Shown piece after piece: positions 3,385-44,730 of a stretch of DNA of 47,726 bases. The position numbers and the translations under genes were made by a program. Origin of the DNA: Escherichia phage HC6; the sequence record OL362274.1, one strand, 5' to 3'. How positions within the stretch are numbered: position 1 is the stretch's first letter; every line of letters starts with the position of its first letter. The notes beneath the pieces were generated by a model. That model was not told where the DNA came from, did no database searches, and was given only the letters and a program-made list of their open reading frames with translations.

Positions 3385-3404
3385 CCATATACCATCCATG
3401 CTAT

Positions 3405-10645: not shown

Positions 10646-10893
10646 GCGCACCACACATGCCAGTGATGAATGAGAACGGATTGCTTGAGTGCCCATGCTG
10701 CGCGTCCAGTGAAATTTATCTGGTTAAAACAGTAGGTGGCTGGAGTTATGTTGAGTGCGACTCATGTTTGCTAAAAACAGAGCATGGTAAGTCACCGGAA
10801 TTGGCAATAAAGACATGGAATCGTCGCAACGGGCACCTCTACACCGCAGAAGACTTCAACCAGGCAGCAGAGGACCGTGATTATGGACTATAA
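10633..10893 (+). CDS. Lar-family restriction alleviation protein-like
   Basis: CPCC...SSEIY...CDSC...AIKTWNRR matches my recollection of the Lar zinc-ribbon pattern; start 10633 or 10642. Confidence 0.55.
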   Translation: MVEMSAPHMPVMNENGLLECPCCASSEIYLVKTVGGWSYVECDSCLLKTEHGKSPELAIKTWNRRNGHLYTAEDFNQAAEDRDYGL

Positions 10894-11371
10894 ATCACAA
10901 ATCATGCGCGTGATTATCAATCATCCTGGTGCAACGCGCGCATACATTGAAAAGCATTGCGGAGGGAAGCATTCAAGCACCACGACGCATCGTCTGCATG
11001 AGATGCTTGCGCTTGGCTTCATTCGTCGCGAGAAGTCAGTGATTCGTGGCGGCAAATGGCAATATAAATATTTCATCTCTGATGATGCGGCTGGTATTGA
11101 TGATGCGATTAAGTGCCATTTACTTGATAACTCTGGCGCAGAGGTGAAAGAAATTAGCGCAGCCACTGGCATTGATTACCGAATCGTGAAAAGCCGCATC
11201 CGCATTATGTTTCATAACGGTGATGTGACGCGAAGCTATGACCACCACAAGAAGCTATGGCGCTATTCATGGCGTGAGCAGGAAGTTAACGTCAGCAACC
11301 TGTTCAATTCACTTCTTCGCAACGCAAGAGGTCAGCATGGGAAAAGCAAAACGCAAGAAGCAAGAGTATGA
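10883..11371 (+). CDS. putative DNA-binding protein (tandem winged-helix-like)
   Basis: 162 aa from ATG 10883; two HTH-like segments; inference only. Confidence 0.5.
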   Translation: MDYKSQIMRVIINHPGATRAYIEKHCGGKHSSTTTHRLHEMLALGFIRREKSVIRGGKWQYKYFISDDAAGIDDAIKCHLLDNSGAEVKEISAATGIDYRIVKSRIRIMFHNGDVTRSYDHHKKLWRYSWREQEVNVSNLFNSLLRNARGQHGKSKTQEARV

Positions 11372-17673: not shown

Positions 17674-18473
17674 TAAACGGACCTCATGAATGCTTTAATG
17701 AATTCTTCTGCGACTTGTGGAACTATGGCATTACCATAACCGCGCAATCGTCCCACTCTTGCGGATACCCCATGAGTTGCCTCGCAAAATCCGCCTGGTA
17801 TGACTCTAGTTTCCTTATCTGCTCCATGGTTGGGTTTCCATGAATCCCATAAACATGAAGCCACATCTGGCGATAAAGAGTATCGTTCCTGAATTTCCCG
17901 TCCTTTCTGTAAAATGACTTGCTGAGATTCCCGTAATCCTTCCATCCTCGCGCCGTTGGTGTCGCCCATCCTCGCGCCAAAGATGATTCTTTTCCTTTCC
18001 TGTGGAGAGCCGACGCTGCAAGCTGGCAATACTGACGCCCCGCAGGCGTAGCCTTTGTCTTCCAGGTTAAGGAATACAAAATCGAGCCAGTGCTTCCCAA
18101 TTGCTGCTGCAACCTGCTCTCCAAACAGCAATTCAGGCTTGCACTCTCTGATGAGCCTGAGAAATGCTGGGGCAAGGTGTCGATCGTCGTCAAATCCGAG
18201 AGACTTACCGGCAACGCTAAACGGCTGGCAAGGTGGTGATCCTGTCCAGAGTCGAGTGCTTTCTGGTATTCCTGCCAGCTGGAGTGCAAGGGGCCACCCT
18301 CCGATTCCGGCAAAGAAGTGACACTGTGTAAATCCTTCCAGGTCTGAAGGGGTGACTTCGGTGATTGATCGTTCATCGACATATCCGTAAGGAATTAGTT
18401 TATTGTTAATTAATTCACGCAGCCATGCCGCTGCGCCCTTGTCCCACTCATTGTAATAGTGGACCATCATCAC
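17673..18473 (-). CDS. DNA (cytosine-5)-methyltransferase, compact
   Basis: 266 aa; FFAGIGG (motif I), PPCQPFS (motif IV), GEQV (motif VI), QERKR (motif VIII), GNAIV (motif X); little room for a target-recognition domain. Confidence 0.75.
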   Translation of the reverse strand: MMMVHYYNEWDKGAAAWLRELINNKLIPYGYVDERSITEVTPSDLEGFTQCHFFAGIGGWPLALQLAGIPESTRLWTGSPPCQPFSVAGKSLGFDDDRHLAPAFLRLIRECKPELLFGEQVAAAIGKHWLDFVFLNLEDKGYACGASVLPACSVGSPQERKRIIFGARMGDTNGARMEGLRESQQVILQKGREIQERYSLSPDVASCLWDSWKPNHGADKETRVIPGGFCEATHGVSARVGRLRGYGNAIVPQVAEEFIKAFMRSV

Positions 18474-19279
18474 ATCTTCTCCAGAATTGCCATCACCTCG
18501 TGAATATCAGCAACAGGAATCTTGATAAACTCCTCATTCTCTGCCACTACATGACCAGCAAGAAGAATAACGTGGTCAGCTGGCTTCAGTAACTCAATCA
18601 GTCGGTCTACTGGCTTAATCTTTTTCGACTTAAGCACCTTCGCCGTTACCTTATCCTTGCCTTGCGCCTTCGCTTCTTCGACTGCCTCGTCGATAACTTT
18701 AACCGCATCATCGCCATGTTCGCGAGTTACTGCTACGGCATTTGCATAGCTGATTTGCCCTGCACTGATTCGCGCTTTTACTTCGGCTGGCACATCACCC
18801 AGTGACAGGTGCATCTGCACGTCAGATACTGAACGGCCGACCTTTTTGGCGATTTCCTCATTGGTCCAGCCAAAGCCTTTCAGTCGCGTGTAAGCCTTTG
18901 CGCGCTCAAATGGGTCAAGCTGCTTACCCTGACTGGATGACACCATGAAGGCAATTTTATCGGCCTCATCGCCAGTGAAATCCTTACACTCAATACGAAC
19001 GATTGGTGCGCCGCGCTCAATGGCACGCAATGCGCCTAGATAGCGATGCTGACCATCAAGAATGCGGATTCCCTTCTCATCAGGAATAACTGTTAATGCT
19101 GGTAATGGCTGACCTGATTCCCAGCACTGCGCGAAATACTCCACATGCTGCTCGTCTGCTTCGCGGATGTTGTATCCCGGCTCCAGATAGATTTGCTCCA
19201 CTGGCACGAGATAGGTTTTGTTAACAGCGATTCCGTTGCGCGTTTCTTTGTCTGAATAGATTTTGCTAAGTGTTTTCAT
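18470..19279 (-). CDS. ParB-like nuclease domain protein
   Basis: 269 aa from ATG 19279; ILDGQHRY ParB/sulfiredoxin-type motif plus HTH-like EIAKKVGRSVSDV. Confidence 0.7.
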   Translation of the reverse strand: MKTLSKIYSDKETRNGIAVNKTYLVPVEQIYLEPGYNIREADEQHVEYFAQCWESGQPLPALTVIPDEKGIRILDGQHRYLGALRAIERGAPIVRIECKDFTGDEADKIAFMVSSSQGKQLDPFERAKAYTRLKGFGWTNEEIAKKVGRSVSDVQMHLSLGDVPAEVKARISAGQISYANAVAVTREHGDDAVKVIDEAVEEAKAQGKDKVTAKVLKSKKIKPVDRLIELLKPADHVILLAGHVVAENEEFIKIPVADIHEVMAILEKM

Positions 19280-22201: not shown

Positions 22202-22575
22202 TGAATATGCTTGAACTGGTTGATGCATATCTTCAGGATGCAGGATTGTACGATGGCTGGACTTCGCAGCTGCAGTTCTGGAATGACACCGGAGATGGAA
22301 GTGAGCAATTTATTGTTCTGCAATCCAACGGTGGCACTCAGGTTATGGATGGCCTCGGCGGTGACTTCTATTTTTCGCTGTATGTTGTTGGCAAACAAGG
22401 CCAATACAATGTTGCTGATGTTGATTCGAAGGCCAATGAGATTATCGAATACATCAAAACACACCCGATTGATTCATGCGTTAACTACATCCAGTTGCAA
22501 GCGCCACTTGGCAGGGCAATGCTGACGGAAGAAAAAAGACCAGTGCATGAACTGCTATTGCGTGTTGTGAAATAA
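22201..22575 (+). CDS. putative tail terminator protein
   Basis: 124 aa; positional, before major tail gene. Confidence 0.4.
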   Translation: MNMLELVDAYLQDAGLYDGWTSQLQFWNDTGDGSEQFIVLQSNGGTQVMDGLGGDFYFSLYVVGKQGQYNVADVDSKANEIIEYIKTHPIDSCVNYIQLQAPLGRAMLTEEKRPVHELLLRVVK

Positions 22576-22577
22576 AT

Positions 22578-22602
22578 AAAGCCGCATGAAGCGGCTTTTA
22601 AT
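22578..22602 (+). terminator. rho-independent terminator
   Basis: AAGCCGC-atga-AGCGGCTT then TTAATTT. Confidence 0.55.
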
Positions 22603-22603
22603 T

Positions 22604-22680
22604 TGGTGGACACGGACGGATTTGAACCTTCAATCAGCCGATTATTAGTCGGTTGCTTTAACCAATTAAGCTACGCGTCC
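22604..22680 (-). tRNA. tRNA, anticodon AAT (Ile-like) by hand fold
   Basis: 77 nt cloverleaf on minus strand: 7-bp acceptor stem, GCTT/AAGC D-stem, GGTTCAAATCC T-arm, encoded CCA; anticodon and isotype need tRNAscan-SE. Confidence 0.6.
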
Positions 22681-22682
22681 AT

Positions 22683-23180
22683 AAGTGCTGGTTTAAGCAT
22701 TGCCAGCGTGCTTTCTTAACATCCAGCCCCGTAACCCATACGTACCCCTACATATGATTGCGATAATGCTGGATATTAAGTGTTGTGGTGGCCGGTGCTG
22801 ATCTCCGGCATAAGGCGCTTATTCGGCGGCGTCGAGCTTGCTTATTCGCTTGAGCCATCCTCGTGAGTCAGCCACGTCCCACTGCGCATCAGCCTGCGCA
22901 TTCACCACAACGGAAAGAGCACTGATGCGCTCACTTGGGACTCCTTAGCCATAACCCACGGGCTTCTGGTACACCAATGCTCTTACCTGTTGTGTTCCCT
23001 GACTTATTAATCACACCTCAGGGACGCAGTGCGCCGAATTTGTTTACAAGGAATCGGAAGACCTTGCTGACTTACAGGCTATTACGCCGCCATCAGAACA
23101 ACATCATCGTTTGCATTTATCTTTGTGGTCAGTTTCTAAAAAGTCCGCAAAGTCGCTCACGAAAACTATCTGAAATACAA
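22683..23180. other. ORF-free structured region, candidate ncRNA or cis element
   Basis: about 500 bp with no convincing ORF; long imperfect hairpin 22876..22941 and hairpin TCCCTGA...TCAGGGA near 22993..23021. Confidence 0.3.
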
Positions 23181-23222
23181 TCTACACCACAAAATAATCG
23201 CTGTCAACACCTGTGATATAAT
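23181..23222 (+). promoter_or_regulatory. promoter with extended -10 (TGaTATAAT) and upstream AATCTACACC / TGTCAACAC elements
   Basis: nearly same architecture as 24554..24603; 37 nt upstream of major tail gene. Confidence 0.45.
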
Positions 23223-23258
23223 CACCACGTTAGCAGCTAACACAATTCGGAGATCGAA

Positions 23259-23975
23259 ATGGCTATTTGTGCAAATGATAAAGGCGTTCTGGTCGGTCGC
23301 ATGACCCGACTGTTCCTTGCTGAAGGGTGCGGCGACGCAGTTCCGGATGCAGGCGACTGGAAGTATTTAGGCTCAACCACCAGTAAAGGCGTTGACTACT
23401 CGCCGCAGACCACTACGTCGGAAGCGGATACCGCTGGCGGCTTTGTTTCTACTCTCGTTACCAGCTCTGATATGACCATCAGTGCAGAGGTAGAAATCCG
23501 CAAGAATGACCCGAGCGATGAGTTTGGTTTTCATCGTCTGGTTGAGATTTACGCCACCGAACTGAAAGCGCGTCGTCAGCCTTCTTTGTGGGTACGTGAG
23601 GTAACTGGTGCAACTATCGTTACCGCGTACTGCAACATCACCAGCATCAGTTATGAAGGCGGCACCAACGACATCGTAACTGGCGGCCTTGAGTTCAAGG
23701 TTTACGATTCTGACAGCGTTACCGTCGAAAGCCTTGAGCCACTGAAGTTCACCACCGACCTGCAATCAACTGGCAGCACTGGCAGCCCGTTAACTGTTGC
23801 TGTTGAAGGTGGCGTCGCTCCTTACACCTACGTGTGGCGCAAAGATGGCGCGGTTGTTGGCGGCGAATCTGGCGCATCACTGGCAAGCCCAACTGCTGGC
23901 GTGTATACCGTTACGGTAACTGATTCATCTACTGACCCGGAAATTATTATCAGCACGGCGTGCACCGTATCCTGA
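23259..23975 (+). CDS. major tail tube protein with C-terminal Ig-like domain
   Basis: 238 aa; own promoter and terminator; Ser/Thr/Gly-rich C-terminal domain like lambda gpV Ig-like extension. Confidence 0.7.
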   Translation: MAICANDKGVLVGRMTRLFLAEGCGDAVPDAGDWKYLGSTTSKGVDYSPQTTTSEADTAGGFVSTLVTSSDMTISAEVEIRKNDPSDEFGFHRLVEIYATELKARRQPSLWVREVTGATIVTAYCNITSISYEGGTNDIVTGGLEFKVYDSDSVTVESLEPLKFTTDLQSTGSTGSPLTVAVEGGVAPYTYVWRKDGAVVGGESGASLASPTAGVYTVTVTDSSTDPEIIISTACTVS

Positions 23976-23980
23976 TAAAG

Positions 23981-24010
23981 AAAAAGCCCCGAAAGGGGCT
24001 TTGTTTTATT
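23981..24010. terminator. bidirectional rho-independent terminator
   Basis: AAAAAGCCCC-gaaa-GGGGCTTTGTTTTATT. Confidence 0.6.
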
Positions 24011-24188
24011 CTAGTGGCGGATCTGGTAACGGCATCCAGTGGGTCACGCACTCAACAAGCACGTTATCGCAGTAGAAATCCCAATATCTGTCGTAAGCCC
24101 CAGACCAAATCTCTCCATACTCATTGAATACCAGAATGGCTTTAAATTGCTCCGGCATCCGCTCACTACACTTAATCCACTGGCTCAT
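24006..24188 (-). CDS. DUF551-like protein
   Basis: 60 aa; W.KCSERMPE ... VTHWMPLPDPP matches DUF551 signature as recalled. Confidence 0.55.
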   Translation of the reverse strand: MSQWIKCSERMPEQFKAILVFNEYGEIWSGAYDRYWDFYCDNVLVECVTHWMPLPDPPLE

Positions 24189-24328
24189 ATCACCTTGTCC
24201 TCATCAAAAATCACGCCAATAACGCGAAGTAAGTCTTTCGCCATGCGTTCCGCTTCCTCGTAGTCGTAACCTGCATCAACATACAAATCAGTGTAGAAAA
24301 TCAGGTCAGCTTTTGTTTGTTCGTTCAT
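24185..24328 (-). CDS. hypothetical small protein
   Basis: 47 aa (MNEQTKADLIFYTDLYVDAGYDYEEAER...); ATGA overlap with DUF551 gene. Confidence 0.35.
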   Translation of the reverse strand: MNEQTKADLIFYTDLYVDAGYDYEEAERMAKDLLRVIGVIFDEDKVI

Positions 24329-24519
24329 TTCTTGTCGCCACTGTTAACTAATGCCCAAACAAGTGCCGCAACCCATCCAATAAAGCTCCACCCGACAAGA
24401 ATATTCAGTACACAGATTGCTGTCGTGTTTGTGTGCTTGCGTTGCAAAGCCACAAATGATGGAAGAAGATAAACAAATATAACCAATCCAGCAAAAAGCA
24501 ACAAAATAACAACATCCAT
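24325..24519 (-). CDS. superinfection immunity (Imm-like) membrane protein
   Basis: 64 aa; YLLPSFVALQRKHTNTTAICVLNILVGWSFIGWVAALVWAL fits Imm-family pattern as recalled. Confidence 0.65.
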   Translation of the reverse strand: MDVVILLLFAGLVIFVYLLPSFVALQRKHTNTTAICVLNILVGWSFIGWVAALVWALVNSGDKK

Positions 24520-24553
24520 AACTCACCTCATTCATATCTCGTTTCGATGATTT

Positions 24554-24603
24554 GAATCTACATCACCACCTCGCAGGTGTCAACACTACTGAGATGATAT
24601 AAT
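24554..24603 (+). promoter_or_regulatory. promoter with extended -10 (TGaTATAAT) and upstream AATCTACATC / TGTCAACAC elements
   Basis: shares element order with 23181..23222; upstream of tail chaperone and tape-measure genes. Confidence 0.45.
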
Positions 24604-24623
24604 CAACATCAGTCAAATTCAGG

Positions 24624-25370
24624 ATGCAAAACATGAGCAATCGCACGCCACTAACAGAAATCGGGGAGATGCGCATCTCGCTTTCTGACAGGAGTTTTTT
24701 CTTTAAGCCATCATTCCGTGCCATGAATGAAATTGGCACGCCAAAAGAAATCGTCGAGGTATACGCTAAGCTCAATGGCATTGATTATATTGCGCCGTTG
24801 CAGCACGTCGAATACCTGCCATTTGGCGCGCAGATGCAGGTTATGAAGACCATCAGCAAACCTGTGTATGGTCGCCATGTACTGAGCGCAGCCTATATCG
24901 TCATGCAATCATGCTGTGAAGATGATATTTCTGTGCTGATTGGTGGATGGAAGCCAACACCGCGCGGTGTGCGATACGTGCCGGGAGTAATGCCAATTGG
25001 CGGCACTGGACATTTGCCAGGTGGAACAGGTGGAATTATTGAGATTGCCCGCTCATTAATGGAGCACGGCATTATTGGCAAATCACCACTCAAAGTGCCT
25101 GAGCGTCTGGAAGAGCAGGGTAAGAAAACCACAAATGAGTTTCATGCGTCGCAATACATCATCTCAGCGCGCACGCATTTCGACATGACGCGTGATGAGG
25201 CCGAAAACCTGTCCATGACAGAGTTTCAGATGATGATTAAAAATAAATATCCAGAGCCGAAAGGGTTAACGAAAGAAGAGCGCGCGGCAGAGTACGATCA
25301 GGCTAAAGCAGACCGTGAGCGCATGAAGGCACTGGCTGAACGCAAAGCGAAAAAAGCGAGGAATACATAA
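24624..25370 (+). CDS. putative tail assembly chaperone
   Basis: about 246 aa directly upstream of tape measure; alternative start ATG 24633; single ORF, no frameshift site evident. Confidence 0.4.
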   Translation: MQNMSNRTPLTEIGEMRISLSDRSFFFKPSFRAMNEIGTPKEIVEVYAKLNGIDYIAPLQHVEYLPFGAQMQVMKTISKPVYGRHVLSAAYIVMQSCCEDDISVLIGGWKPTPRGVRYVPGVMPIGGTGHLPGGTGGIIEIARSLMEHGIIGKSPLKVPERLEEQGKKTTNEFHASQYIISARTHFDMTRDEAENLSMTEFQMMIKNKYPEPKGLTKEERAAEYDQAKADRERMKALAERKAKKARNT

Positions 25371-27744
25371 TGGCTGAAGAAGTCGGCGGAATTGTCTATG
25401 AAGTCGGGATGGATGTTAAAGGCCTGAAGGCTGGCGCGACAACAGCCAATAAGACTTTAGATGACCTTGAATCATCAACCAACAAAACCACAAGCGCCCT
25501 TGGCAAGCTGGATAAAAACGCCAGAAATGCTGGCAGCGGAATGAAAAATGCTGGCGGCGCAGCTTCAGGGCTAAAAACGCGGATGACGGCTCTTGCTGGC
25601 GCAATATCCGTGTCACTGATTATCGAATGGGGAAAGCGATTCCTTGATGTTGCCGATAACATGACACAACTTCAGGCAAGGATTGCTCGCTTGTCAACTG
25701 ATGCGAAAACCGCGAACGAAACATTCAGTACACTGGCAAATATCGCCTCGACCACTGGCGCAAGTCTCAGCGACACCACGAAGCTGTGGGAAACATTGAC
25801 GTCATCACTGAAAGAGGCTGGCGCGACAAATGCGCAGGTTCTTAACCTTACTGACACTCTGCAAAAGATAGGACGAATCGGCGGGTCATCAACAGAAGAA
25901 ATGGCGAACGCCCTGCGTCAGTTCGGTCAGTCAATTGCTTCTGGCACAATCCGCGCCGAAGAATTTAACTCCATCCTTGAACAGATGCCTGAACTTGCGC
26001 GCCAGATTGCAGCTGGACTTGGCATTTCAATGGGCGAACTTCGCGCCAGAATGCTTGACGGAAAGCTGACGGCAGAAGATGCACTGAATGCCATTCAGGA
26101 CAGGACAAGCATCGTCAATGCTGAGTTTGAAAAACTTCCTCGCACAATGGATCAGGCCGTTGGTTCTCTTGAAGTTTCATTCTCCAAACTTGTGGTTGCC
26201 GTTAACGATGCCACTGGCGCATCAAAAACAGCAGTAGAGATTATCGACCAGCTGGCAAAATACATTGATTTCCTCGGCGACAAATCAACCAGCACGAGCG
26301 ACAAGATTCTATCTCTCGCCACGGTTATCTCGAAGCTAAACCCAGGCGCATGGGCACAAATGGGGGTTGATGCGCTTTTCGGTGATGATGATATTGAGAA
26401 GCAAAAACAATATAACGATCAAGTCGAGCGATTCGTTAAGGCTTCAAAAGAAGGTTACGAGCAGACAAAGAAACAGGCTGAAGCAACAAAACACCTGAAG
26501 ATTGCACAAGCACCAACCAAAGACAAGAAAGGCAAAGGAAAGGGCAAAAGCGCCGAAGAACGGCAAGCTGAGTCAGTTGCTGAAAAGCTGGAGAAATTAC
26601 GCCAGCAAACCATGCTTAATGCCACATCTACCAGCGAACTCTCCCGCGAACAAGCTATTCTCAACGCGCAGCAATCGCTTGGCAAAGCTGCCACTCAGGA
26701 GCAAATAAAGCTGGCTGGTGAGTACGCTGCGAAAATTTGGGACCAGAAGAATGCACTGAAGGAGCAGGCAGAAGCGGAGAAGGAAAAGCAGCGCATAGAA
26801 AAATCATATCAGGGGTTGCGCGCTATTGCGTCGCCAACGACTGGCATTGACAGTGAATACCAGCAACGTATGGCTGACCTTGACGCATACGCCGCAGCAT
26901 ATCCACAAAAAATCAAGGAGATTGAGCAGACTCGCGCAGCAATTGAAGCACAATACCGCCAGCAGCGAATGGACGCCATGTGGGCAGAGTGGCAGCAGCA
27001 AAGCCTCGGGGCGCAATTGTTCGGTACGGCGCTTGATTCTGCAATGAGCACGGCATCAAATAGCATCACCGGATTGCTGACAGGAACAATGAGCGTTCAG
27101 GATGCCATGCGCAGTCTCGGCTCTACGGTACTCAACTCTCTGGTAAATAGTTTCGTCGAAATGGGTGTGCAGTGGGTTAAATCTGCTGTTATGGGACAGA
27201 CTGCGCAGGTTGCGGCAACAGCAACCACAACGGCGGCGCAAACAGCAGGGCTGGCAACCACAACAGCAGCATCCACGGCGGCAGCAGCCACTACCACGGC
27301 AGCATGGACTCCTGCAGCAATCGTAGCATCAATCGGCTCATTCGGCGGGGCAGCTGCAATTGGGGTAGGTGCCGTTCTCGGAGCTCTGGCGATGGGCATT
27401 GCTGGCAAGCGTAAAAATGGTGGCCCTGTTAGTGCCGGAAGTATGTACGAAGTGGGCGAAAATGGCTTGCCTGAAATATTCCAGGCGTCCAACGGTCGCC
27501 AGTATATGATTCCCGGTAACGATGGCTCAGTTATCAGCAACAAAGATATTACCGGAAGTGGCAGTGGCGTTGTGGTTTATAATAACGTGATAAATAACAG
27601 CTCAGCGCAGGTTAGCAGCAGCGCCAGAGATAACGGTGATGGCAGTGTGACGATTGAGACTATCGTTAGTGATATTTCGGAAAATGGCCCGATAGGGCAG
27701 GCCATCTCTAGAAACTACAACACCAACAGGAGAGCAACCGAATA

Positions 27745-27745
<1 letters not shown>
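25370..27745 (+). CDS. tail tape measure protein
   Basis: 791 aa, Ala/Gln-rich helical repeats, Gly/Ala/Thr-rich hydrophobic stretch near C-terminus. Confidence 0.9.
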
Positions 27746-44430: not shown

Positions 44431-44730
44431 CGTGGGTAACGTGGGGCAGCCGTGGGGAACATCACCTTCCCCACGAACTTTTACTCTAAGTATATGTAAT
44501 ATAATAAAATTATTATTATTTGGGGTAATGGGTAATATTATTATTCATATTATAGATAGTAATTAACATAATATTAACAAATGGATTATTTGAATATATT
44601 TATAAGGGGATGGGTATGAAATCTGCCCCACTTACCCAAACATGTTAAAAGCCGCATGGCGCAAGGGTTTCCCGTGGGGCATACCACCTTCCCCACGACC
44701 TGCCCCACGGGCAAAAATTTACCCCACGAG
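44431..44730. repeat. iteron cluster flanking AT-rich stretch (candidate replication origin)
   Basis: seven exact CCCCACG/CGTGGGG copies plus two one-mismatch copies, both orientations, flanking about 140 bp of AT-rich DNA. Confidence 0.5.

Follow-up and report, generated by a model that had tools for sequence, protein, structure and literature searches.

Known systems and the loci analyzed

Promoters of the extended -10 (TGn) type function with Escherichia coli RNA polymerase without a -35 element, and pairs of divergent, overlapping sigma-70 promoters are known from phage lambda (pR/pRM) and from tetA/tetR of Tn10. In the activator-dependent promoters associated with phage P2 Ogr and phage P4 Delta, with Mu C and with the T4 MotA box, the activator site lies at a fixed distance from the -10 element. 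Dispersed asymmetric operators positioned over promoters are exemplified by the C1 operators of phage P1 and the KorB operators of plasmid RK2. Ribosome rescue by transfer-messenger RNA (tmRNA, SsrA), including its two-piece permuted forms, is represented in Rfam by families RF00023, RF01849-51 and RF04321 (PMC11915505). The analysis presented here compares these systems with two loci of Escherichia phage HC6 (sequence record OL362274.1), located 5' of the major tail protein gene (P1) and 5' of the DUF6246 and tape measure genes (P2). A previous reading of the sequence alone (the sequence-only reading) had described these loci as near-identical late promoters, controlled together and sharing upstream elements. 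Our results indicate that each locus very probably contains two divergent promoters, the leftward ones (P1-, P2-) serving accessory cargo and the rightward ones (P1+, P2+) serving late structural genes.

All coordinates refer to the window, that is, the whole stretch of 47,726 nt, and are obtained by adding 23 to those of Escherichia phage 6947 (ON637251.1). The phage is a 47.7-kb siphovirus whose near kin comprise Shigella phage DS8 (genus Deseoctovirus) and about 50 phages of Salmonella, Escherichia and Shigella; it appears to be virulent, with neither an integrase nor a repressor annotated. Klebsiella phage BUCT610 and Vibrio phage pYD38-A were compared as more distant relatives. Start sites at P1 and P2 are all predicted, as the seventh base after the -10 element.

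Shared elements and predicted leftward promoters

The three elements that the sequence-only reading had reported in identical order at both loci were recovered as exact matches on the plus strand: AATCTACACC (23179-23188), TGTCAACAC (23202-23210) and TGATATAATC (23214-23223) at P1, and AATCTACATC (24555-24564), TGTCAACAC (24578-24586) and TGATATAATC (24595-24604) at P2, the first element beginning 2 nt before the point at which that reading had started. Within the window, exact instances of TGTCAACAC and TGATATAATC are found at P1 and P2 only, and the -10 block forms a 14-nt repeat (TGATATAATCACCA / TGATATAATCAACA). Sequences matching AATCTACAYC with at most one mismatch number 18, against 5.5 expected, a count that none of 100 shuffles reached. 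Chance similarity of the two loci is ruled out by the counts of elements, motif copies and promoter sites, and sharing well beyond chance is confirmed. The start-to-start distance between AATCTA and TGTCAA is 23 nt at both loci (a 17-bp gap), and TGATATAATC starts 12 nt after the start of TGTCAACAC at P1 but 17 nt after it at P2.

Read on the minus strand, the first two elements are TTGACA-N17-TAGATT, at 23207-23179 and 24583-24555. A consensus promoter scan of positions 22500-24700 scored both leftward sites at 10/12 and returned a single further match, weaker than either. At P1 and at P2 the leftward -35 agrees with consensus at 6/6 positions and the -10 at 4/6, including the two key positions (A2 and T6), and the pattern TTGACA-N17-TAnnnT has no further instance on either strand of the whole window. 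Both hexamers are invariant among 33 distinct P2-region sequences, in which the 12 distal spacer bases vary freely and spacer length stays constant. Upstream of the major tail gene, AATCTA-N17-TGTCAA is kept in 31 of 34 close relatives, and the paired hexamers are also present in BUCT610 (17-bp spacer) and pYD38-A (16-bp spacer). Curators of phage ASO78B have independently annotated divergent promoters, one of them on the minus strand, at the equivalent of P2. The leftward -35 and the rightward TG, for their part, are separated by 6 bp at P1, by 11 bp at P2, by 2 bp in BUCT610 and pYD38-A, and by 8 bp at two further back-to-back pairs of the same genome, 7380(-)/7389(+) and 20168(-)/20177(+). 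Given this rigid mutual spacing and the loose spacing to the rightward -10, the two elements can be regarded as a separate unit, a leftward promoter.

Predicted rightward extended -10 promoters

At 23214 and 24595, a TG lies one base 5' of TATAAT (-15/-14), as in extended -10 promoters, and a search for a -35 element 16-19 bp 5' of both TATAAT boxes gave at best 2/6 matches at P1 and 1/6 at P2. The sequence-only reading was therefore right to describe extended -10 promoters lacking a recognisable -35 upstream of late structural genes. The P1+ box lies 45 nt 5' of the major tail start codon (23259), and the P2+ box 38 nt 5' of the DUF6246 start codon (24633). They are conserved: the extended -10 box is kept in 36 of 36 relatives examined, the TGaTATAAT of P1+ is invariant among 20 distinct relatives' sequences, and two related loci (L042, L043) keep TGATATAAT even though the leftward elements are gone.

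Across the genome, TGNTANAAT is not significantly over-represented (12 copies versus 8 expected). Eight of the 12 copies fall within the intergenic 7.2% of the genome (P ~3e-7), however, and 7 of the intergenic boxes are located in front of late modules, 35-45 nt 5' of the first start codon. The modules concerned are portal, lysis, capsid, head-tail, major tail, DUF6246/tape-measure and tailspike (Table 1). In DS8 and ASO78B the boxes are retained, also at sites whose flanking sequence has diverged. P1+ and P2+ are thus predicted to be members of a larger late promoter class with at least seven representatives. The features of E. coli extended -10 promoters, a TG one base 5' of a consensus TATAAT and no recognisable -35, are all present here; the difference is that these boxes, known from sequence alone, make up one class placed before every late module. 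The proposal that the late promoters are jointly controlled survives in part. A class of similar, conserved boxes in front of late modules is in its favor and co-regulation is plausible, but the upstream elements do not qualify as activator sites (see below).

Two other candidate rightward elements were rejected. TACAAT (23175-23180), considered as a third rightward -10 before the motif, is accompanied by neither a -35 nor a TG and was not called by the scan. GTCAAC/TCAACA, considered as a displaced -35 or as a MotA-box-like element, has an offset from the predicted start that varies from -31 to -26, and is the reverse complement of the leftward -35.

Probable bidirectional promoter modules

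We consider it highly probable that each locus is a compact bidirectional module made up of two divergent host sigma-70 promoters. Host sigma-70 RNA polymerase would use both halves of the module. From the rightward half, an extended -10 promoter devoid of a -35, it would transcribe the major tail gene at P1 and the DUF6246 and tape measure genes at P2, and from the leftward half, TTGACA-17 bp-TAGATT, it would transcribe accessory cargo. This cargo would consist of a tmRNA-like RNA and a transfer RNA (tRNA) at P1, and of a T4-Imm-like superinfection-immunity gene, a 47-amino-acid (aa) open reading frame (ORF) and a DUF551 gene at P2. Leaders, Shine-Dalgarno sequences and terminators mark out four tidy transcription units. 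Only about 57 bp (P1) and 62 bp (P2) separate the predicted leftward start site from the rightward one, which places the leftward -35 inside the region occupied by a polymerase bound at the rightward promoter. The two halves would probably not be occupied simultaneously, competing instead for polymerase; the leftward promoters may act early or constitutively and their rightward partners late, and the motif TCTACRYCA over the leftward -10 (see below) could let a phage protein shut the leftward promoter off.

As in lambda pR/pRM and Tn10 tetA/tetR, the paired promoters lie on opposite strands with starts a few tens of bp apart and with one -35 in the upstream region of the other, a layout suited to mutually exclusive use. 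In contrast to those systems, one partner here is a -35-less extended -10 promoter, operator and repressor are candidates only, and the back-to-back design recurs at least four times in a single phage genome (7380/7389, 20168/20177, P1 and P2). The promoter architecture is of a well-known kind, and it is the RNA and the motif that are unexpected. If leftward accessory genes are transcribed from the repeated "upstream elements", the transcription map of the group has to be redrawn, and the expression of swappable cargo (tRNAs, an RNA gene, an immunity gene) within late structural operons is explained, which is relevant to engineering or annotating these therapeutic-candidate phages. A literature search on promoters of this phage group, including transcriptome or 5'-end data, returned nothing relevant.

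Several points weigh against the bidirectional module. TAGATT agrees with the consensus at only four of six positions, the start sites of all four promoters are predictions, and the proposed timing and competition of the two halves are purely conjectural. Extended -10 promoters, moreover, can still be activator-dependent. Finally, the TGAYG directly 5' of TAGATT is conserved beyond what a plain sigma-70 promoter needs, which suggests an additional function for AATCTACAYCA.

A dispersed motif overlapping the leftward -10 elements

AATCTACAYCA is a copy of a motif found genome-wide, TCTACRYCA, with AATCTACGTCAACAC as its extended form. The most over-represented 9-mer in the genome is TCTACGTCA (7 copies versus 0.21 expected), which also ranks among the top 9-mers in DS8 and ASO78B. 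For TCTACRYCA itself, 1.2 exact matches are expected and 14 are present, 13 in the intergenic 7.2% of the genome (binomial P ~2e-14). The copies are often paired, they are present in most intergenic regions with predicted promoters, and they are kept at equivalent sites in DS8 and ASO78B, with one copy inverted between phages. With respect to predicted hexamers, four registers are observed: just after the -10, just after the -35, antisense over the -10 and antisense over the -35. P1-, P2- and 44775+ display the antisense-over--10 register. In the P2 block, GAATCTAC-TCA is invariant and extends 5 nt past TAGATT into the spacer, the rest of which varies.

In one possible, if rather doubtful, extension of the bidirectional module, a global regulator encoded by the phage would use TCTACRYCA as its operator. 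Binding of this regulator would shut P1- and P2- and free the overlapping extended -10, and an early-to-late switch by relieved promoter competition could follow; we regard this switch, too, as unlikely, though worth considering. The abundance of the motif and its near-confinement to intergenic regions are in line with an operator. The two orientations and four registers of the copies are also more readily explained by an operator than by an element contacted by polymerase, and one copy is inverted between relatives. The dispersed motif of the related Kagunavirus phages, moreover, is a different one. On the other hand, the proteins that might bind it (one resembling the helix-turn-helix (HTH) family HTH_ParB/KorB, the other weakly MarR-like) are only candidates, and the motif is also present at late-module promoters. 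Its reverse complement, TTGAYGTAGATT, contains -35-like and -10-like hexamers, so that repeated use or duplication of a single promoter cassette could account for part of the enrichment. The most economical, albeit unproven, reading of the motif is as the operator of a phage regulator, with reuse of a promoter cassette as the alternative.

The C1 operators of phage P1 and the KorB operators of RK2 resemble TCTACRYCA in being short motifs that are found nearly exclusively at promoters, in both orientations and at variable promoter positions, and a KorB/ParB-type HTH protein is encoded here as well; they differ in that binding is putative here and the phage apparently virulent. In a comparison made by eye, sigma-S -10 elements, "CGTC" -10 elements of the extracytoplasmic function (ECF) type, MetJ boxes, DnaA boxes and IHF sites all proved a poor fit across the copies. 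A literature search for TCTACRYCA found nothing relevant besides the Kagunavirus motif, which was derived from PHIRE scans and ascribed to a phage RNA polymerase by one of the papers (PMC7203180 Table S4, PMC9825357).

Activator sites and duplicated cassettes as alternatives

A reading that we judge improbable is that AATCTACAYC and TGTCAACAC bind a phage-encoded activator that switches on both -35-less late promoters together, with the shared upstream elements acting as activator sites. The geometry of the loci contradicts this view. Whereas the 17-bp gap between the two elements is exact, the stretch separating them from the rightward -10 changes by 5 bp from P1 to P2 and by 4 bp from 6947 to BUCT610, and such a shift of half a helical turn misfits a single activator geometry; the TGTCAA-TG distance takes values of 2, 6, 8 or 11 bp, where an activator-dependent late promoter would have its upstream site at a fixed distance. 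It is true that the rightward promoters have no -35 and that AATCTACAYCA belongs to a strongly over-represented, promoter-associated motif that is conserved beyond the hexamer, but the opposite strand of the same elements provides a perfect -35 and a usable -10, and same-strand cargo to go with them. The phage does encode predicted DNA-binding proteins as candidates for such a role, an HTH_ParB/KorB-like protein (18470-19279, minus strand) and a weak MarR-like protein (10883-11371). Both elements are nonetheless absent from the extended -10 boxes at 3399 (portal module) and 12661 (capsid module), and L042 and L043 keep the extended -10 without them. The Ogr/Delta, Mu C and MotA promoters are similar to P1+ and P2+ in being devoid of a -35 and in their supposed late use, and dissimilar in that the candidate sites here shift by 2-11 bp and are missing from other late promoters.

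That P1 and P2 are alike through shared ancestry only, as copies of a duplicated cassette with upstream elements of no present function, is very improbable, since the common element order, 17-bp gap and 14-nt -10 block are set against intervening sequence that is unrelated between P1 and P2, and against hexamers and motif that alone stay invariant in relatives while spacers drift, which argues for selection on the elements themselves.

A tmRNA-like RNA downstream of P1-

Under the bidirectional-module interpretation, P1- faces a 683-nt "intergenic" region that holds one tRNA, a terminator-like hairpin and no minus-strand ORF of at least 40 aa. In relatives the same region spans 451-1595 nt and holds differing sets of tRNAs, every one of them on the minus strand. 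Four cargo variants have a homology breakpoint directly downstream of the TAGATT of P1-, and by this comparison of sequences the promoter behaves as a fixed socket for exchangeable cargo.

The first ~190 nt of the predicted P1- transcript are 70-93% identical to unannotated DNA of unrelated phages. Carriers of the RNA (loci L004-L011 and L046-L167 in this analysis) include Vi01-like Ackermannviridae, the N4-like phages FSL SP-058 and PGN829.1, FelixO1-like Silverhawkium, phage P1, D6 and lambdoid prophages. The phage P1 copy is found in the ban operon, between a "dicF-like region" and trnA. The Silverhawkium copy lies inside a tRNA array with its own TTGACA-17-TAAGAT directly upstream, and conservation starts at the predicted start site. 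We tentatively propose, at slightly less than an even chance, that P1- drives a member of an undescribed, tmRNA-derived RNA family of ~390 nt that carries a selected template for a 10-residue tag and tmRNA-type pseudoknots but no canonical tRNA-like domain, and that travels as mobile cargo of very different phages.

The proposed tag lies in a conserved stretch, AUAAAU GCA AAC GAU GAU GUU GUU CUG AUG GCG GCG UAA UAG (23114-23079, minus strand). All 115 unique homologues keep a 10-codon frame of the form AN[DE][DEN]xx[LM]x[AV]A followed by a stop, except for one that ends in P. The tag opens at a resume-type GCA (Ala) without a start codon, an in-frame UAG is present upstream, and the upstream frame is not conserved. 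Judged by these sequence features, the frame behaves as a tmRNA tag template; the tag of E. coli ssrA is ANDENYALAA. In the proposed structure, 86.9% of cells are paired, versus 37-47% with slid partners, and compensatory changes are observed in both stems of pseudoknot 2 (PK2), in one stem of PK3 and in the stop-codon hairpin, the PK1-like fold 5' of the tag receiving weak support from covariation. The 3' domain contains an acceptor-like 7-bp helix (UGUGGUG/CACCACA, with U3-A70) and two covarying hairpins, and the last hairpin of the RNA aligns with the T-arm of E. coli ssrA. Global folding energy of the RNA core gave no signal (z = -0.12), and hence structural support is drawn from covariation only.

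Standard searches gave no tmRNA call above threshold. With ARAGORN, neither the window nor any of 52 homologous loci was called, and Rfam scores were below the gathering threshold for RF04321 (permuted tmRNA; 27 bits versus 47) and for RF01850 (13-18 bits versus 84). A canonical tRNA-like domain was not found, there being no G3-U70 and, in most copies, no encoded CCA. Since the promoter abuts the region just 5' of the tag, the 5' acceptor strand, the D-loop and the 5' strand of helix 2 are missing. The RNA therefore resembles tmRNA in its GCA resume codon, in a 10-residue tag like that of E. coli, in a stop codon within a hairpin, in covarying pseudoknots flanking the tag, in its length (~390 nt) and in a similarity to E. 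coli ssrA that spans the resume-codon region to the T-arm. It differs from tmRNA in the parts just listed as missing, in the substitute acceptor-like helix of its 3' part, and in scoring below ARAGORN and Rfam calls.

The RNA was detected in 124 of 5426 complete E. coli genomes, always on the chromosome and at sites left blank by the NCBI annotation; in E. coli O26:H11 11368, it is located between the Q antiterminator and holin genes. Matches in at least 120 IMG/VR contigs, compared with 4 of 185,579 species-representative genomes, point to phage cargo rather than a bacterial core gene. Neither Rfam 15 nor the openly searchable literature contains a description of it, although a prior description in closed-access work is possible. 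If the proposal is true, this RNA family could let phages re-tag or divert host trans-translation, and a functional RNA would offer a direct way of studying the interplay of phages with ribosome rescue, with the model phage P1 among the carriers.

Protein-coding readings of the region were also considered. No minus-strand ORF of at least 40 aa exists in 22680-23172, and the plus-strand ORF at 22935-23216, of 93 aa with a TTG start, lies across the conserved RNA of the minus strand and is likely to be spurious. The hypothetical proteins annotated over the RNA region of BUCT610 and pYD38-A (L009 477-779 and L010 660-947) are probably mis-calls. A "tmRNA" reported by ARAGORN in locus L032 (1876-2250, minus strand) reuses a tRNA-Met as its tRNA-like part, has the nonsense tag AKAVRLRKCSFRCGECAG and leaves out the actual tag frame; the call is probably artefactual. 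In three prophage contigs (L069, at ~930-1090, L051 and L049), the core sits within an array of hairpin modules sharing the stem CACAACAGGUAAGAGCAUU / AGUGCUCUUUCCGUUGUG; some of these modules enclose a T-arm-like GGGUUCGAAUCCC, and the organization is modular, with cassettes that look shuffled.

Transcription units and other features of the window

The features identified at the two loci, together with the dispersed motif and late-class boxes, are collected in Table 1. The hairpin that closes the P1- unit stands directly 3' of the stop of a rightward gene (22575) and may end that transcript as well. The AAT anticodon of the tRNA in this unit is unusual. In many relatives, ARAGORN calls a tRNA-Met (CAT) at a similar position, and the AAT anticodon may be a C34-to-A variant.

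Table 1. Predicted promoters, transcription units, RNA features and motif copies in the window
Feature	Coordinates	Strand	Remarks
P1- -35 TTGACA (within TGTCAACAC)	23202..23207	-	promoter scan, conservation in relatives
P1- -10 TAGATT (within AATCTACACC)	23179..23184	-	predicted start ~23172
P2- -35 TTGACA	24578..24583	-	promoter scan, conservation
P2- -10 TAGATT	24555..24560	-	predicted start ~24548, ~28 nt 5' of imm start codon
P1+ extended -10 TGaTATAAT	23214..23222	+	serves major tail gene; predicted start ~23229, leader ~30 nt; no -35
P2+ extended -10 TGaTATAAT	24595..24603	+	serves DUF6246 (chaperone position) and tape measure genes; predicted start ~24610
Late-class extended -10 boxes TGnTAnAAT	3399, 7389, 12661, 20177, 23214, 24595, 31547	+	no -35
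Motif copy TCTACACCA	23181..23189	+	overlaps -10 and proximal spacer of P1-
Motif copy TCTACATCA	24557..24565	+	overlaps -10 and proximal spacer of P2-
TCTACRYCA, all 14 copies	2001, 7342(-), 7371, 10129, 10154(-), 20128, 20159, 23181, 24557, 38171, 40788, 40813, 44753(-), 44770(-)		
tmRNA-like RNA	22783..23172	-	~390 nt, predicted from P1-
Tag frame GCA AAC GAT GAT GTT GTT CTG ATG GCG GCG TAA	23082..23114	-	would encode ANDDVVLMAA and stop, then second stop TAG
RNA parts, in order			possible PK1-like fold, tag frame, stop-codon hairpin, two covarying pseudoknots, long hairpin CACAACAGGUAAGAGCAUU / AGUGCUCUUUCCGUUGUG
3' tRNA-like domain candidate	acceptor-like helix 22909-22903 / 22790-22784; D-like hairpin 22899-22884; T-like hairpin 22809-22791	-	
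tRNA-Ile (anticodon AAT)	22604..22680	-	distal cargo of P1- unit
Terminator-like hairpin	22578..22598	called on -	closes P1- unit
Major tail protein gene	23259..23975	+	apparently single-gene unit, P1+ to terminator
Bidirectional terminator	23983..24002	both	ends major tail unit (+) and imm/DUF551 unit (-); annotated in ASO78B
DUF551 gene	24006-24188	-	P2- cargo; unit 24006..24519
47-aa ORF	24185-24328	-	P2- cargo
Imm_superinfect (T4 Imm-like) gene	24325-24519	-	P2- cargo; good Shine-Dalgarno sequence
DUF6246 gene	24633-25370	+	precedes tape measure
Tape measure gene	25370-27745	+	after DUF6246

In the ON637251 record, the major tail protein is mislabelled "fibritin", and two genes of the capsid region are labelled "coat protein", through transferred annotation. 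Other repeats are also over-represented in the window. CCCCACGR occurs 7 times, against 1.2 expected, with six of the copies at 44450-44729, between divergent early genes and beside a very AT-rich stretch (~44515-44610); in its sequence, this cluster looks like the iterons of a replication origin. The 7-mer GCCAGTG/CACTGGC has 38 copies where 6.3 are expected, a strong excess that extends to related 8- and 9-mers.

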